A stretch of DNA of 62,983 nucleotides, the filler included, from Globobulimina sp. (taxonomy: Eukaryota), in the NCBI GenBank assembly GCA_003354225.1. It is 55 parts of 55 records of this genome, joined end to end, with 100 filler letters (N's around TTAATTAATTAA, not from the genome) between each part and the next. Parts side by side here need not be neighbours in the genome. Positions count along the whole stretch, not along the records: positions 36,720 to 37,766 come from PIVH01024906.1; 54 more parts are not named here. One strand, given 5' to 3'. The notes under the pieces are model-generated. The model made no database searches. It was not told the origin of the DNA and saw nothing but the letters and a program-made list of their open reading frames with translations. Positions 6,789 to 47,039 of this stretch are shown here, piece by piece. Numbering within the stretch: the stretch's first letter is position 1; each line of letters starts with the position of its first letter. Both the position numbers and the translations under genes were made by a program.

Positions 6789-6888
6789 NNNNNNNNNNNN
6801 NNNNNNNNNNNNNNNNNNNNNNNNNNNNNNNNTTAATTAATTAANNNNNNNNNNNNNNNNNNNNNNNNNNNNNNNNNNNNNNNNNNNN

Positions 6889-7936
6889 CAAGGTATTTGG
6901 TCAAAAGTCGATCGCTCAGACTGGGTGCATGCTATGGTTACTGTTGATAAGCCGGACGGTGGAGTTCGCATCACTACAGATTTGTCCCCGCTGAACAAAT
7001 ATGTGATTCCTAGTCGATATCCTCTACCAAACGTCCGCGATTTGTTTCTCAAACTTGGCCACTCAAGGATCCACACAAAACTTGATCTATACAAGGGATA
7101 CTTTAATGGTAAAGTCCATCCAGACAGTCGTTTACTCACAACTACTTTGACTCCAAAAGGTATGTACGCCTACAACAGGTTGCCTATGGGATTAGTGGAT
7201 TCTGCCGCAGTTTTCCACAAAATGATCGCTCAGATGCTTGCCGATTGCCCTGGTTGTGAGCCATACATGGACGACATCATTGTCTATGGAAAAACTCAAG
7301 AGGAACATGACCGTAACCTCCGGATGGTGTTACAAAAACTTCATGATAAGAATTTGCGACTTAACATCAAAAAGTGCATTTTTCGGGCAGCTGAAGTTCC
7401 GTTTCTTGGTCATCTCATCTCACATGAAGGTATCAAGCCCGACCCAAAGAACTTGCAGCCTATTCGTGATTTTGAAACACCTAAAACCTTGAAACAAGTC
7501 CAAAGTTTCTTGGGTATGCTCAATTATTATAGTCCTTTTCTGCCCGATCTCGCAGCGCTCACCGAACCGCTTCGTGCCCTCACTCGCAAGGATATTACAT
7601 TTGTTTGGACTGCTGACTGTTCAAAGGCCTTCGAAACACTGAAGAAGTTAGTCTGCACCGAACTCAAACTCGCCATTTTCGACGCCGATTGCCCTACTTT
7701 TCTTTCAGTAGATGCATCTGATGTTGGCATCGGTGGTGTCCTGTCACAAGTACAGCATGGTCGAGAAATTCCTATTGCGTTTGATCATCATACCTTAGAT
7801 GCCAGAAAACGTGGTATGGCAGTTAACAAAAAAGAGGGTTTTGGCACTGTTTACTTTACAGAATATTGGGAGAAATTTTTACTTGGACATCACTTCACAT
7901 TACGCACTGATCATCAACCATTGATCACCATGCTCA
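6889..7936 (+). mobile_element. Ty3/Gypsy LTR retrotransposon pol fragment (RT + RNase H)
   Basis: KLDLYKGY, RLPMGL, YMDDII, FLGH, VQSFLGMLNYY, VDASDVGIG, RTDHQPL. Confidence 0.95.
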
Positions 7937-8235
7937 NNNNNNNNNNNNNNNNNNNNNNNNNNNNNNNNNNNNNNNNNNNNTTAATTAATTAANNNNNNNN
8001 NNNNNNNNNNNNNNNNNNNNNNNNNNNNNNNNNNNNGCAGAGGTTAATTCAAAACGAACTAATCTTTCGCCTTTTACTAAAGGTTACCGTGGATTGGCCT
8101 CGCGAATGCAATTTATTTCAATTTATGCAAATGAATCTTCTTTGGAAGGTTCACAATATTACCATATCTTTCGCCTTTTGAAAATAAATAAATAAAATAA
8201 AATAAAATAAAAAAACATGATTATAGCTATATTCA

Positions 8236-27395: not shown

Positions 27396-27891
27396 GTCTA
27401 TAAACAAACAAAGTTTTAAACTCGTCCGGGGTAGGTTCGCGTCNNNNNNNNNNNNNNNNNNNNNNNNNNNNNNNNNNNNNNNNNNNNTTAATTAATTAAN
27501 NNNNNNNNNNNNNNNNNNNNNNNNNNNNNNNNNNNNNNNNNNNGAAATCATCAAAAATTGCGATCATTTATTACGGATAGCATACGGCTTACGATATTAC
27601 CAATTATTATGTGGTAAAAACTCGAACTCGAACTCAGAAGCAATATTTATCGAATATAATTTTGTAGCAATGCATATTTAATGTGTTTGTCAGATTATAT
27701 CCATTTACCAAAAAAAACGCAGTAATTAAGACATTACCGAGCCAAAAAGTGCCACTTTACATCGTCTAGAACCAGAAACGAGAAACGAAAAACACTTTTA
27801 CCACCTCTAGAGTTGGTAAAATAGAAACGAAAAAACACACACGATTGGGGAAAACCTTAGGTTTTTCACTGTATAAAAAAGAAAATAAAAT

Positions 27892-27950
27892 GTGATGATT
27901 GGGATTTGAACCCAAATCTTATTAAGATGCTCTCAATGAGCTATCATCAC
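27892..27950 (-). ncRNA. 59-nt tRNA-like cloverleaf with reduced anticodon arm (copy 1)
   Basis: GTGATGA TA GCTC-ATTGA-GAGC ATCTT-AAT-AAGAT TTGGG-TTCAAAT-CCCAA TCATCAC, then A and a T-tract. Confidence 0.7.
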
Positions 27951-27989
27951 TTTATGTATTATGTGTGATTGCGAATTTGCGAGATAATA

Positions 27990-28365
27990 ACCCACCGCCT
28001 CCCAAACGCCACATTCACCGCCTCCCATACGCCCAAATCCAGCGCCTCCCAAAACGCCACTTCCACCGCCTCCCATACGCCCAAAACACCTCCTCTCAAA
28101 CGCCCAAACCACCGCCTCCCAAAGGCACAAATCCACCGCCTCCCATACACCCAAAATCACCGCCTCTCATACGGCCAAATCCCCGCCATAACCACGCCAA
28201 ATCACCGCCCTCATACGCCCAAATCACCGCATATCAAACACACAAATCCCCGCCTCCATACGCACAAATCCCAAACGCACAAATCCCCGCCATAACCACC
28301 GCCATAACAACCGCCAAAACCACCGCCATTACCACGCCAAATCCACCGCCATAACCACCGCCAAT
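27990..28365. repeat. Degenerate GC-rich tandem array (CCACCGCCTCCCA / ACGCCCAAA units)
   Basis: Many variant 20-25 nt units with strong C/A versus G/T strand skew. Confidence 0.85.
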
Positions 28366-29837
28366 CGCACGTATAAACGATCTTTTGATGATCGAATTTG
28401 GATGGAAGTTGAATCCGAAGACTAAGCATCCATTGTTTTTGATGCTGCGACTAAAAAGTTTTGCTTTGAGCTTAAAGTTTTCGATCGTTTGTGTCTTGTT
28501 GGATGGATGGATTATTATAGCTATAATTGATAGGTGTAATGTTTGTATTTGTATTTTTTCCCATGAAAACAATCAAAATCCGAAAACATANNNNNNNNNN
28601 NNNNNNNNNNNNNNNNNNNNNNNNNNNNNNNNNNTTAATTAATTAANNNNNNNNNNNNNNNNNNNNNNNNNNNNNNNNNNNNNNNNNNNNCAAAAATAAA
28701 ATTCAGATCAATCAAATGAAGAGATCTTCTTTTGTTTCGCAAAACTCGCGAAATTGATTGGAATCTGCATCGAAACAGGAAAAGGATATAATTATTTTGA
28801 GTCACATCTAACAATACAATCATGATAAATGATGCATAATAATGACCATAATTATCAATTGCAATAGCTTTTTATTGTTTAAGATCTAATTGTTAGAAGT
28901 CAAGTATTTACTTCAGTTAATTGTCACTAAATGTCACATTGAACCTACCCTAGACCCTAGACCTCATTTGTAATTGCGCACTTGGAGATGATATCCAAGC
29001 TTTAGAGGTTCAGTGTACAGATAACCTGCATTTATCATGTCAACAGAATGGAATTATTTCCTTTCAAATATTACACTGTACCATTATTATAAACAACTGT
29101 GAATCTATTGTTGCACCATCTAAAAGCTTTCAACGCAACGGTGGTGGAATATGCATATTTGATTATAACCAATTAGACAGCATCTGCAGCATTATCAGTG
29201 GCATTATAGTCAGGAAATGGTGCGACCGAGAGGATAGAAAGTCATGAAACACACTTCTTTTCACTTCGGAATATAAAAAACTTCCATATCAGTCAATGGA
29301 TCGTATTGTTTTAAGAACGCATGGGAAACGGTGTTGTATATGAGTTTTTTGGATGCATACAAGAGTGTACGAATGGAGATTACATAAACAAATCAGTGCA
29401 AATATCTTTGAAACGTTTCTATTTATCAGTCACACATTTTATGAGGAATTGTTAAGCATTTTATGCAGTTATTATGGTATACAACACAAAGAAAATAATT
29501 AAAAACAAATCTGACATTGATTTCTGTGTATTTGGTTGTATATGCACTAATATTTGCTCTTTTAAAAGCACTAAGTGGCGAATTACTATTCACCACAATA
29601 TTGGTGCCATGATAGTTGCGTAGTGTTGAAAGGTGGTTAAAACACCCATTTGACACATGCGTGTTGTAACCAAATTAGAAACACGTAGCAGTGACCAGAC
29701 GTCGTTTTGTATACACTGTTGTCACCATACCTATGATNNNNNNNNNNNNNNNNNNNNNNNNNNNNNNNNNNNNNNNNNNNNTTAATTAATTAANNNNNNN
29801 NNNNNNNNNNNNNNNNNNNNNNNNNNNNNNNNNNNNN

Positions 29838-34958: not shown

Positions 34959-35572
34959 AGGAGTCAGTTTGACAGAGTCAATATGTTAATTTTAGGATTT
35001 TCCTTTTAAACTACCCCATCATGATGCATTTCTAACCTTCCATTATTGTACCACATATGTAGTAGTAATGGTACTTGTTCTTTACTTAGTTTTTGCTGTA
35101 CCTCATTAGACTAATGATTTTCTTCACGTTATTTAATTGATTCTGATTTATTGTGATTCTGTCTACCCGTCGCCCTATGGATCGCCACCATGTTGAAGGA
35201 TTACATTTATTAGGTGAAATAAAGTTTTTTTTGAGAAATTGTGTTGTGTGCCATGCCTTAAATACAATAAGATACATATTTGATCGTTTAATTTGACAAA
35301 AAACTACAAAAAGTTCTTCCGCCGAGGTTCGAACCGCGGCTGGACCATAACGGGCACATCGGACGTTGCTCAAAAGTCTTCGATAATTCTATCCAAGGTG
35401 AGGTTCGGCCATTTTCCAGTCATTTCAGGACTGTATCAATGAATTTTGAAATGTAATTGGTCAAAAAATGGCNNNNNNNNNNNNNNNNNNNNNNNNNNNN
35501 NNNNNNNNNNNNNNNNTTAATTAATTAANNNNNNNNNNNNNNNNNNNNNNNNNNNNNNNNNNNNNNNNNNNN

Positions 35573-36619
35573 TGTTATTTTGTCGGTGTTTCTGTCGTTT
35601 TCAATGGATTTTATCCATTGCTTCATCATTTGTTGATCAATTGCTTTGGATCCGCCCTTTCCCGGATTTTGCCTCTTTTGCGCTATTTGGTAGTTGTGGA
35701 GGTTGGGCATCGCGGCTTTTGTTATATTGATTATTATGTTGCATTTCAGTGCGAAATCTCTCAATCCGTGCTTATGTGAATGGACTGCGGTCCATCCAAA
35801 GTTTTGTTTACATGCTTTGTTCCATATCATATAATCGATTATATTGCCTTCGTCGAAAGCTGTTATTGGCTTATCGTGGATTTTGGAATATATCATCCAA
35901 TATTTCTCGATCGAATTGTATTGTTGATTGGTGTTCTTTGCGTGTCTGTATTGCCAATTGATTTGTCTTTGTTTGGCGAATTCTAATTGGGTCAGTTTAC
36001 GCGGCCTAAAGTTGCCGTTTGGTCGAACCTGTTTTTTGTTGATTTTGTTAGTTAGTTTTTAGGTGAAAGTGAAAAAACTTCTTTGTCAATGTTCCAAAGG
36101 CGTTATATTTTTAAATAGTGATTATATCGCAAAAAAAGAAAAACATTCAACAATTACATTTTTGTTTGCCATTTTTATTTGATATCCAACGGTTATATGG
36201 TTGTTGTTGTTTGCAAGTTGTTTGATTCTCGCAATTGCAATTTATTCCTCTCGTTTTTGTTGTTCCCATTCGTTTTCTGGCCTCTTTGTATATTCTGAGA
36301 CCTTCATTGGATGCTATCCTTGCCTCTTCCGAGTGATTTATGAGATTCCATGATTTATCACATGTTTCCAAAGCGTTTCTATATCCTCGCGATAGTCCGT
36401 CAGCCCTTGGATTTGCTAACGTTGATATCCATTTTATCCATATATAAAAACAGTATGCATTGCATAATACGCATATTCTCCTCAATAATTCTTGCAAGTC
36501 TTTTCTATAGAAACATGCAGATTTCTTAGCGACTATGGCACAAACTGCGGCGTTGTCGCATAATAACAATAATGCTTTGCCATTCCATTCCTTTGCGGTT
36601 ATTTTCAACATGACATAGA
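35573..36619 (-). mobile_element. DIRS/Ngaro-type retrotransposon: RNase H end followed by a possible tyrosine-recombinase N-terminus
   Basis: LLCDNAAV...KWIST..NPRADGLSRG; downstream ORF 35573-35896 lies where the YR is expected. Confidence 0.75.
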
Positions 36620-36719
36620 NNNNNNNNNNNNNNNNNNNNNNNNNNNNNNNNNNNNNNNNNNNNTTAATTAATTAANNNNNNNNNNNNNNNNNNNNNNNNN
36701 NNNNNNNNNNNNNNNNNNN

Positions 36720-36913
36720 CCTCATCTATCGATATATTATTTATTTATTATGGTAAATATGGCGGCGACGAAGTCGCCTCATCGATCGATATTATTTATA
36801 TCTATGGATATAACATTTATTTGGTATCTATGGGCGGCGACGAAGTCGCCTCATCGATGGATGGTATTACATTTATTGGTATGTAAGGGCGGCGACGAAG
36901 TCGCCTCATCGAT
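36720..36913 (+). repeat. Three identical 26-nt palindromic repeats (plus a partial one) with AT-rich variable spacers
   Basis: GGCGGCGACGAAGTCGCCTCATCGAT at 36761, 36833 and 36888; spacers 46 and 29 nt. Confidence 0.9.
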
Positions 36914-36933
36914 GGATATTAAATGATTTTTTT

Positions 36934-36992
36934 GTGATGATAGCTCATTGAGCATCTTTAAATAAGATTTGGGTCCAAATCCCAATCATCGC
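36934..36992 (+). ncRNA. 59-nt tRNA-like cloverleaf with reduced anticodon arm (copy 2)
   Basis: GTGATGA TA GCTC-ATT-GAGC ATCTT-TAAAT-AAGAT TTGGG-TCCAAAT-CCCAA TCATCGC, then A and a T-tract. Confidence 0.7.
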
Positions 36993-37649
36993 ATTTTTTT
37001 TAATATTTTTTTTATTCCCATAATTGATTACATTTTTTTGTTTTATATAATGTTTTGTGTTTTTTGTTTCTTTTATGAATATGTACCCCACTAAGTGGGG
37101 TAAAAGGTTCAAAAGGAGTGGAGTAATTCCACTTTTACTGCGTTTTTTTGGGTAAAAATATTACAACAATTCTGTCACATTTTCGCGAGAAACACCAACA
37201 TAAACAACAAAGTTGCCAATCCGAGTTATTGATACAAAAAACCAAATATTAATTCCATAGATTCCACAGGACTTATTGAAGTAACTGCTATTGAACAATC
37301 ACCAAATATATATTGTTGAGATTGCAGCTCATCAATTGAATAAATATCACCTTCATTCAATGCAAACTGCCACCAATATACGATTCTTTTTGCGATTAAT
37401 AACTCTGTGAATATTCGCGATAATCTATACCTTTTAGCAATGAACCAACATTACACAAAATGAACATGTATTAGGGGGGCAACAGAGTTGCATTGCGGGG
37501 CGATAGACTCAGAGGCAAGATAGGCACAGATGCAGGAGACCAGGGTCCAAGAGGCACGGTTACAAGACGAATGGTAGCATTCCTTATATTGACTATTTTT
37601 TTTGTTAGAAAAATTGAAAAAAAATTTTAGAAAAAAAAATTTTGAAAAA

Positions 37650-37766
37650 AAAATTTCTTAGTGAAAAACTTTTTAGTGAAAACTTTGAAAAACTTCTTAG
37701 TGAACAATTTCTTAGTGAAAAAAATTCTTAGTGAAAATTTTCTTACTTAAAAACTTTCTTAGTGAA
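37650..37766 (+). repeat. Minisatellite (TTCTTAGTGAAAA)n
   Basis: About 7 degenerate units running to the contig end. Confidence 0.85.
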
Positions 37767-46108: not shown

Positions 46109-46939
46109 TTAGAAGTGTTTCTTAAAGCACTTTTTCAAAATCACATCCAGCGCTGGTTCACAAACCGTCGCTGCATTGTCCATCTGGACATCTTCGATAT
46201 CTGTTTGGAACTTCTTTAAGTCGAAGCGCGACAAAGCATCCGCAGTAAGGTTATCCTTACCTTTGATGTGGATGATGAACGGATGAAATCCGTTCTGGTT
46301 CGCGCAGTCCGCGATGATTCTTATCAGCCACATAACGTCATCTCTCTCGAAGCTGCAGCTGCGCTTGGCGATGCTGTAGACGCATGCCTCGTTGTCGCAC
46401 CAAAAGGTCACGGCCTTACCGGACCAATTCTTGCCCCAGATCAGGCAGGCTGTGGCAATCGCGCACATTTCCTTCCAAAATATATCTGGCTTCTTCGGAT
46501 CTCTGAAGAATGCCTTGTTGACATGGTCGGTCCAGCGGAACCGGAACCAGTTCCCGTTCTTATTCCATCCTCCCATGCCTATGCCGGTTGACGCGTCGGT
46601 GAGCACATGAATGTCTCCTCTATCTCTTGCGCGCAAAATATCGACAAATTTGATGCCGCGCGAGCCCAATAGGATCTGGTTCCTCCACCAAATCAGGTCC
46701 TTGCGAAATTTGTAAACATCCACGTGATGCTTCAGGTAAGGAACCTTGGCCGCTACCTTCTCCATTCTTCTCACGAAGGCTGGTCCTGCATAGATGCAGA
46801 CCGAAGCCCAGCGGAGCTTGCCTACCAGGGATAGCAACTCCTTCTTTAGGACGCTCTTCCTGCCGAGGAAGTCGTCAATCTCGTCCAACATCACGCGCAG
46901 CTTGATTTCGGGGATGAAGACCATTTGTCTGACGGTGTC
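46109..46939 (-). mobile_element. DIRS/Ngaro-type retrotransposon RT-connection + RNase H
   Basis: LLSLVGKLRW, TDASTGIGMGG, EMCAI, WCDNEA, DNLTADALSR. Confidence 0.88.
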
Positions 46940-47039
46940 NNNNNNNNNNNNNNNNNNNNNNNNNNNNNNNNNNNNNNNNNNNNTTAATTAATTAANNNNN
47001 NNNNNNNNNNNNNNNNNNNNNNNNNNNNNNNNNNNNNNN

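Follow-up and report, generated by a model that had tools for sequence, protein, structure and literature searches.

A family of tRNA-like cores with a conserved cloverleaf, often carried by a composite kilobase repeat, in the foraminifer Globobulimina

The mascRNA of MALAT1 and the menRNA of MEN-beta are tRNA-shaped RNAs of ~58 to 61 nt with a stunted anticodon arm and are described as tRNA mimics for RNase P (PMC8457004, PMC11693755). Each sits at the 3' end of a long noncoding RNA that polymerase II makes from a single-copy gene, just after an A-rich tract and a U-rich ENE triple-helix element. Many dispersed copies mark the tRNA-derived short interspersed elements (SINEs) and retro-pseudogenes; their tRNA head contains promoter-like boxes, and its anticodon region has decayed. 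In SINEs, a tRNA-unrelated body and an A-rich, simple-repeat, or LINE-like tail follow the head. Rfam includes a mascRNA-menRNA family besides its tRNA family, RF00005. In Entamoeba, array units are described as tRNA genes plus short tandem repeats (PMC2652664). The account of the foraminifer Astrammina rara gives ordinary tRNA genes, not in arrays (PMC3079666). Here we describe a tRNA-like core that occurs twice in a window of 62,983 nt (the whole stretch of DNA analyzed, filler included) from the foraminifer Globobulimina sp., assembly GCA_003354225.1. Copy 2 lies on the plus strand, in the part taken from PIVH01024906.1, and copy 1 lies on the minus strand of another contig.

The core appears to be a tRNA-derived, polymerase-III-type, non-decoding minigene with a fold under constraint, often carried by a composite repeat of kilobase size. 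We give this reading about an even chance. Polymerase III would transcribe the core from an internal promoter and stop at the T-run behind it. The RNA, of ~60 to 67 nt, would fold like a tRNA. Its acceptor/T-arm helix would let RNase P, RNase Z, and the CCA-adding enzyme act on the RNA. Selection would act on the RNA fold and not on the loops. The RNA would be unable to decode, because it has no variable region and no D-loop G18G19 and its anticodon loops range from 3 to 11 nt. The family belongs among the tRNA-derived repeats and tRNA mimics, kinds already known.

Both window cores are 60 nt long including the discriminator A (Table 1). Copy 2 has a 7-bp acceptor with one U-G pair, a 4-bp D stem with a 3-nt loop, a 5-bp anticodon stem with a 5-nt loop, no variable region, and a 5-bp T stem with the loop TCCAAAT. 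The stems of copy 1 are the same. Its D loop is 5 nt, its anticodon loop is 3 nt, and its T loop is TTCAAAT. RNA folding gave the same four-arm cloverleaf for both copies, at -20.1 and -20.6 kcal/mol (z -4.0 and -4.5), and 0 of 200 shuffles folded as well. The 20-nt T-arm/acceptor word has exactly two occurrences in the window, where 0.01 would be expected. The original prediction had placed two cloverleaves here, with their differences confined to loops (TCC versus TTC in the T loop) or a G-U pair, and had held that neither is an ordinary decoding tRNA. These points were all borne out, and the D loops without GG add to the last of them.

Copy 1 matched RF00005 at 44.9 bits (E 4.2e-8) in E-value mode, where the gathering score is 29; it went unreported when the whole window was searched in gathering mode. 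No Rfam tRNA match to copy 2 was found at E <= 10. ARAGORN called neither window copy. Among the first 11 related copies found elsewhere (L001 to L011), ARAGORN called one, and four matched RF00005 at gathering with 46.5 to 49.9 bits. These RF00005 matches indicate that the core is tRNA-derived and not a separate invention. The original prediction had named a match to a known tRNA family as grounds for refutation, and such matches were thus obtained for copy 1 and four relatives.

The window consists of 55 separate pieces of ~1047 bp joined by N44-TTAATTAATTAA-N44 spacers, and its G+C content is 34.7%. It is eukaryotic, because it contains a U5 spliceosomal RNA gene (the sole Rfam match at gathering score over the whole window), and many open frames in the standard code, among them retroelement genes and a topoisomerase II fragment that a protein-atlas look-up placed no more finely than in Eukaryota. 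The Globobulimina draft genome is given as 34.25% G+C with an N50 of 1,797 nt (PMC6783311), and the window is similar to it in composition and contig size. Two scans retrieved the relatives. The first, of a metagenome collection with a 22-nt T-arm/acceptor pattern from the 3' half of the core, gave 11 contigs with one accession prefix (L001 to L011). This accession is described as unbinned contigs associated with the benthic foraminifer Globobulimina (PMC6783311). The second applied a 22-nt pattern of the 5' half to a prokaryote genome collection and added three contigs (L012, L013, and L014). These are short PIVX01 contigs filed in a Gammaproteobacteria genome bin of the same Globobulimina project, and they are probably misbinned high-coverage repeat contigs of the host. 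The relatives' contigs are 0.7 to 4.8 kb long. The L010 contig carries a RabGAP-TBC gene (Pfam match), so the contigs are taken as eukaryotic and not bacterial. A dispersed family of protist origin had been foreseen, and the scans agree: 14 further copies lie on 14 other contigs, all of the foraminifer project.

The core family thus contains 16 copies on 16 contigs: 2 from the window, 11 retrieved through the 3'-half pattern, and 3 retrieved independently through the 5'-half pattern. A covariance model, R1, was built from the first 13 copies. It scores 76 to 95 bits across all 16. With R1 and filters off, no third core was found in the window, where the next forward matches had E values of at least 0.3. 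The commonest length is 64 nt (9 of 16 copies, 8 of these with a clean 7-nt anticodon loop), and the range is 60 to 67 nt. The usual layout is a 7-bp acceptor, 2 nt, a 4-bp D stem with a 5-nt loop, a 5-bp anticodon stem, no variable region, a 5-bp T stem with a 7-nt loop, and the discriminator. D loops are 3 to 5 nt and lack GG, and nothing stands between the anticodon and T stems. U8 is present, and the discriminator is A in 13 of 16 copies. Of the eight related main-family copies that were folded, six have the cloverleaf as their minimum-energy fold.

The anticodon loop is a clean 7-nt loop in 8 of 16 copies (ATTGAAG in four, ATTAAAT in two, and ATCGAAG and ATTCAAG in one each). Four copies have a 6-nt loop, one has an 11-nt loop, and one has a broken closing pair; the remaining two are the window copies, with 5 nt (copy 2) and 3 nt (copy 1). 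The original prediction had likened the window cores to mascRNA. The cloverleaf with a stunted anticodon arm is there, and the likeness goes no further than shape. The clean 7-nt loop in half of the members indicates that the window copies are loop-deleted variants and that the mascRNA-like stub is a derived state of a small tRNA-like gene. No mascRNA family was among the Rfam matches listed at E <= 10 for either window contig.

A second tRNA-like element was found on a contig that also bears a main-family copy (L011:1061-1127, minus strand). It scored 37.7 bits on the Rfam tRNA model. It folds as a cloverleaf whose anticodon loop is 4 nt and whose variable region is 5 nt long, and no T-run stands directly behind it. 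Five of its acceptor/T-stem pairs are altered on both sides relative to the main family. This suggests that the genome holds more than one lineage of anticodon-stunted tRNA-likes.

The core resembles tRNA genes in its 7-bp acceptor, U8, 4-bp D stem, 5-bp T stem with a 7-nt loop, and putative T-run terminator. Unlike decoding tRNAs, it has no variable region (at least 4 nt in tRNA), no GG in the D loop, and varying positions 55 and 56. Decoding tRNAs also have a 7-nt anticodon loop with U33 and a purine at 37, unlike the window copies with their loops of 5 and 3 nt. In tRNA, positions 55 and 56 contact G18G19 of the D loop. Since the D loop here lacks G18G19, freedom at positions 55 and 56 would suit an RNA in which the T loop is still folded as in tRNA and the elbow is lost. 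A real mini-tRNA was considered, as the 7-nt loops offer Ser UGA/CGA, Leu UAA, and opal-suppressor UCA anticodons. It was rejected because copies with 6-nt loops are equally conserved and the body lacks a variable region and G18G19. Ordinary tRNA genes are described from a foraminifer, so the non-decoding cores would be extra. A role as a retroelement primer was also rejected: a scan for a primer-binding-site-like complement of the core 3' end plus CCA found the core alone, at 3 mismatches.

Variation in the core falls in the D, anticodon, and T loops and not in the stems, as had been predicted from the two window copies. Standard pairs make up 98.3% of the pair cells, against 33 to 51% when the partners are slid by 1 to 3 columns. 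Of the columns left once the 22 search-fixed ones are excluded, variation affects 6 of the 27 that are paired and 17 of the 19 that are unpaired (Fisher 1.3e-5). In the three copies retrieved with the 5'-half pattern, the 3' half is intact, with a single T-loop change. A compensatory D-stem change, C-G to U-A, is present in L002 and L010. G-U wobbles occur solely in the plus sense, at pairs 2:66 and 23:43. T54 and A58, the first and fifth bases of the T loop, are invariant, and positions 55 and 56 vary, giving TTC in eight copies, TCC in seven, and TCT in one.

The core is also better kept than its flanks. Among L003, L004, L005, L009, and copy 2, pairwise core identity is 610/634 (96%), against 477/570 (84%) in the 60 nt upstream and 270/333 (81%) in the 60 nt downstream. 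Without the 22 searched positions, core identity is 390/414 (94%), a figure derived from the totals. The pairwise comparisons among these five units are not independent of one another. The cores of L003, L005, and L009 are identical, and their flanks differ by 10 to 30%. Across subfamilies, alignment is limited to the core, a few preceding bases, and the T-run.

A T-run (at least 4 T within 12 nt after the core) stands behind 14 of 16 copies and is a putative polymerase-III-type terminator. By eye, an A-box-like block, TAGCTCAnTGA, was matched in the D arm, and a B-box-like block, GGTTCAAATCC, was matched in the T arm. The T-run and these blocks would together make an independent polymerase III unit of 60 to 67 nt. 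The original prediction had compared the core with mascRNA, a module cut from a long polymerase II transcript; the T-run fits the terminator of an independent minigene better.

Several points weigh against the polymerase III minigene. Transcription, the RNA ends, and CCA addition are all things that we infer from sequence. The minimum-energy fold of L006 and L001 is a three-helix alternative and not the cloverleaf, because their ATTGAAG anticodon loop is complementary to the D-arm stretch CTCAAT. L001 and L010 lack the T-run. In 8 of 16 copies, the T loop (TCC or TCT) departs from the B-box consensus, and in TFIIIC binding those B-box positions matter for promoter strength. Covariation is thin. 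Only one pair is changed on both sides, a count reached by 182 of 500 shuffles. For the paired-cell percentage, 11 of 500 shuffles did as well, and the same number did so for the covariation score. The majority of stem columns are constant and are uninformative either way. In the core, 22 nt are fixed by the construction of the search patterns, and the flanks used as a yardstick are minisatellite and T-rich low-complexity DNA, which mutate fast. Core conservation could come from gene conversion or the recent spread of a master copy and not from selection. The relatives all come from one sequencing project plus the window.

The core is often part of a composite repeat of ~1.1 to 1.2 kb. The order of its parts is common to copy 2, L003, L004, L005, L009, L012, L013, and L014, and copy 1 has the same order in a diverged form. 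The unit starts at its 5' end with a long near-perfect palindrome of ~160 nt with a GC-rich center (L009:73-235 and L003:1-95; the outer arms alone in L004). Small conserved islands follow: TTTCATGGGA, AAAAACAATGGATGC, and the palindrome CGATCATCAAA(A/T)GATCG. The third part is a G-rich minisatellite (L003, L005, L009, L013, and copy 1), and the fourth is a minisatellite of ~57-nt units, each with a hairpin GGCG(A/G)C-GNA-G(T/C)CGCC. The tRNA-like core comes fifth and the T-run sixth. Behind them stand a spacer, in which a TTTTCGTTTCTATTTTAC-hairpin-GTAAA(A/C)G sub-repeat occurs once or twice, a second hairpin, and a terminal motif TTACTGCG-T7/8-GG(G)TAAA.

In 8 of 16 copies, the array of G-N-A hairpins immediately precedes the core; such arrays were seen in the window and in L003, L004, L009, L012, L013, and L014. 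Tandem Repeats Finder gave 57 nt x 8.2 in L004. A G-N-A loop with a complementary closing pair was present in 46 of 47 stems caught by a regular expression (GAA in 21, GCA in 18, GGA in 6, and GTA in 1). The 6-bp array stem occurs in two versions that differ on both sides, GGCGAC/GTCGCC and GGCGGC/GCCGCC. A coding role of the unit was rejected. All three plus-strand frames are open through the L004 57-nt array (134, 174, and 176 aa), so an open frame there is a by-product of the repeat. Four array open frames had no Pfam match at E <= 0.1.

The T-run, hairpin, and terminal motif behind both window copies are present as predicted. From core to terminal motif, the distance is 142 nt in copy 2 and 166 nt in copy 1, and the sequence between aligns poorly. 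The first spacer hairpin of copy 2 keeps its pairing with other letters in L004 (TACTCCAC/GTGGAGTA) and as a G-T-rich version in L005. The original prediction had placed this downstream architecture on unrelated contigs, as part of an RNA-processing module or of a SINE/Helentron-like element. The contigs are separate, yet one composite repeat family is present on the two of them, in the sequence upstream of the core too. The downstream architecture is the 3' end of the ~1.2-kb carrier unit, and a role as an RNA-processing signal is putative.

The boundaries of the unit are reproducible. BLAST homology stops at GGGTAAAA in copy 2 (Wc2 438), L005 (1015), and copy 1 (Wc1 887), and it begins at TTTTACCC in L009 and L004. 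A contig from run X1, one public sequencing run in the form of contigs only that holds 5% of the sampled window words, agrees with this: the contig (record 5, 957 nt) matches 37084-37157, and the match ends at 37157. Units abut unique sequence on the 5' side in L009 and L012 and on the 3' side in copy 2, L005, and L014. Positions 542-718 of L012 match the copy 1 contig with 88% identity over 177 nt. The core also stands in quite different surroundings in at least four copies (L001/L008/L011 and L002), so it is a module in its own right. L006 and L007 have no upstream array; L012 and L014, which are copies of the unit, have the same T-rich stretch behind the core as these two, whose contigs stop shortly beyond it.

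In L004, positions 1-119 are identical to 1224-1342 (119 bases), as expected of a 1223-bp tandem or circular unit. A linker of ~103 nt with a 20-nt direct repeat replaces the last ~32 nt of the terminal module there. As far as the published description of Entamoeba goes, its array units are alike in joining a tRNA-type gene with complex internal tandem repeats in a repeat of about a kilobase, which L004 recalls as a tandem or circular 1223 bp. They are unlike the units here in holding decoding tRNA genes in long arrays, whereas here the gene is a non-decoding mimic and several units abut unique sequence.

Table 1. Positions of the features of the two window copies and of the U5 gene, counted along the whole window
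Feature	Position	Strand	Remarks
tRNA-like core, copy 2	36934-36993	+	60 nt including discriminator A; R1 75.9 bits
T8 run, copy 2	36994-37001	+	Directly behind discriminator; second T8 at 37007-37014
Upstream minisatellite, copy 2	36720-36925	+	~57-nt units with GGCGAC-GAA-GTCGCC hairpin; contig begins inside array
Array stems, copy 2	36764-36778, 36836-36850, 36891-36905	+	
3' spacer, copy 2	37002-37134	+	CCCATAATTGATTACA block at 37017-37032, then T/G-rich stretch
Hairpin TACCCCAC-TAA-GTGGGGTA, copy 2	37084-37102	+	
Hairpin GGAGTGGA-GTAAT-TCCACT, copy 2	37115-37133	+	
Terminal motif TTACTGCG-T7-GGGTAAAA, copy 2	37135-37157	+	3' boundary of unit
tRNA-like core, copy 1	27891-27950	-	60 nt including discriminator A; R1 85.5 bits
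T-rich run behind core, copy 1	27875-27890	-	
3' part of unit, copy 1	27704-27890	-	T-rich run, sub-repeats, hairpin, terminal motif
TTTTTCGTTTCT sub-repeats (two), copy 1	27823-27834, 27781-27792	-	
Hairpin, copy 1	27799-27818	-	
Terminal motif TTACTGCG-T8-GGTAAA, copy 1	27704-27725	-	
5' part of unit, copy 1	27951-28590	-	G-rich minisatellite (~27986-28362), then three islands common to related loci
Island CGATCATCAAAAGATCG, copy 1	28378-28394	-	
Island AAAAACAATGGATGC, copy 1	28426-28440	-	
Island TTTCATGGGA, copy 1	28559-28568	-	
U5 spliceosomal RNA gene	8034-8151	+	80.4 bits

The strongest competitor to the minigene, though we consider it unlikely, is an inert SINE-like or retro-pseudogene tRNA family. 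Such a family would have spread by reverse transcription of a polymerase III transcript or by duplication of its carrier DNA, and its copies would be alike through youth or gene conversion. Subfamilies with non-aligning flanks have the core alone in common, the T-run travels together with the core, and the contexts are many. The X1 depth peak falls on the invariant half. The loop indels resemble slippage in A/T-rich loops, and the unrelated tRNA-like of L011, with its 4-nt anticodon loop, suggests that the genome repeatedly makes such relics. tRNA-derived SINEs are alike in their tRNA head, dispersed copies, and decayed anticodon region, and the blocks matched by eye recall their internal promoter-like boxes. 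They are unlike the core, directly behind which stands a terminator-like T-run and neither a tRNA-unrelated body nor an A-rich or simple-repeat tail. A larger DNA-level repeat contains many of the cores, and conservation is much higher in the core than in its flanks. DNA-duplicated units keep the core at 94 to 100% and the flanks at ~81 to 84%, and three identical cores stand in diverged settings. No target-site duplication was seen, though no copy shows both ends. In subfamily B, the 38 nt upstream are common at 98%, which points to DNA-level copying and not to retroposition of a transcript.

A signal at the level of DNA is somewhat less probable still. The cloverleaf, the G-N-A hairpins, and the palindromes would be single-strand DNA structures or protein sites of a non-autonomous mobile element (inverted-repeat or rolling-circle type) or tandem repeat, or the core would be a TFIIIC-binding or insulator site. 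DNA folding also gave the cloverleaf for the window cores, at -10.3 and -12.8 kcal/mol (z -3.3 and -4.7), and folding therefore cannot tell the RNA and DNA hypotheses apart. The unit is packed with palindromes and G-N-A-loop hairpins. G-N-A triloops of the d(GCGAAGC) type form unusually stable mini-hairpins in DNA. Non-autonomous DNA elements of the inverted-repeat or Helitron/Helentron-like kinds have reproducible boundaries (here the end at GGGTAAAA in three copies and the start at TTTTACCC in two), subterminal hairpins, an inverted match between their ends (8 nt here), and minisatellites, and the identical ends of L004 would suit a tandem or circular unit. However, the inverted match is not significant as an alignment, its score being reached by 69 of 500 shuffles, and the end is not the CTRR of Helitrons. 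No transposase or Rep gene was found, and no target duplication has been demonstrated. The wobbles (T-G, G-T) are in the plus sense only, which fits RNA over duplex or either-strand DNA. The core is found without the unit in the different surroundings given above, and an insulator would need the B box, which is the varying part.

The third competitor is a punctuation signal like mascRNA, in which RNase P would cut a long polymerase II transcript at 36933/36934, set the upstream 3' end, and free a small RNA. Core and mascRNA agree in shape. In several otherwise unrelated subfamilies, a GC-rich hairpin or palindrome 20 to 40 nt upstream of the core could protect a new 3' end. The L010 copy, which lacks the T-run, lies ~450 nt downstream of the RabGAP-TBC Pfam stretch on the same strand. 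This reading is nevertheless the least probable of the three: unlike mascRNA and menRNA, the core is multi-copy, with a hairpin or G-rich minisatellite upstream and a T-run behind that would be needless in a polymerase II processing module, and in a comparison that did not include a formal ENE search, no conserved upstream A-rich tract or U-rich motifs were found, the last 20 nt before the core being wholly different between the window copies.

A more far-reaching reading gives the cores a function. Foraminifera may have a large set of tRNA mimics that do not decode but work as RNAs, made or released where the G-N-A array meets the conserved terminal module, with a role as RNase P/Z punctuation or as a tRNA-mimic regulator, like that of mascRNA in vertebrates. 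We regard this as unlikely. tRNA mimicry would then have arisen independently in Rhizaria, in multi-copy form and in connection with the spread or expression of a kilobase repeat. Foraminiferal genomes are barely described, and in the foraminiferal literature searched, including that on Reticulomyxa tRNA genes and repeats, no description of a tRNA-like or SINE-type repeat was found. The core family is abundant, is missed by standard tRNA finders, and has a clear split between kept stems and free loops. Expression, if it occurs, would make the family a protist equivalent of the tRNA-mimic RNAs, which are so far known from vertebrates alone, and would open a way into the polymerase III and RNase P biology of Rhizaria. 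Should the family be just a repeat, R1 would still serve for masking, as a genome-assembly marker, and for flagging misbinned eukaryotic contigs, three copies being in the "gammaproteobacterial" bin.

Summed X1 contig depth was 16,890 over 36965-36999, against 148 to 2,786 in the other covered repeat bins (36720-37209). This peak hints at many copies and fits a highly repeated invariant half; it is not a copy number. X1 cover was almost nil over 37210-37454. Retroelement-type open frames, named by eye from their translations, were found in the window at 6841-7992, 35525-36671, and 46109-46987. They comprise a reverse transcriptase and pieces like RNase H and a recombinase. At its far end (37455-37766), the copy 2 contig contains another repeat of tandem CTTAGTGAAAA-like units, with high summed X1 depth, that is unrelated to the tRNA-like unit.

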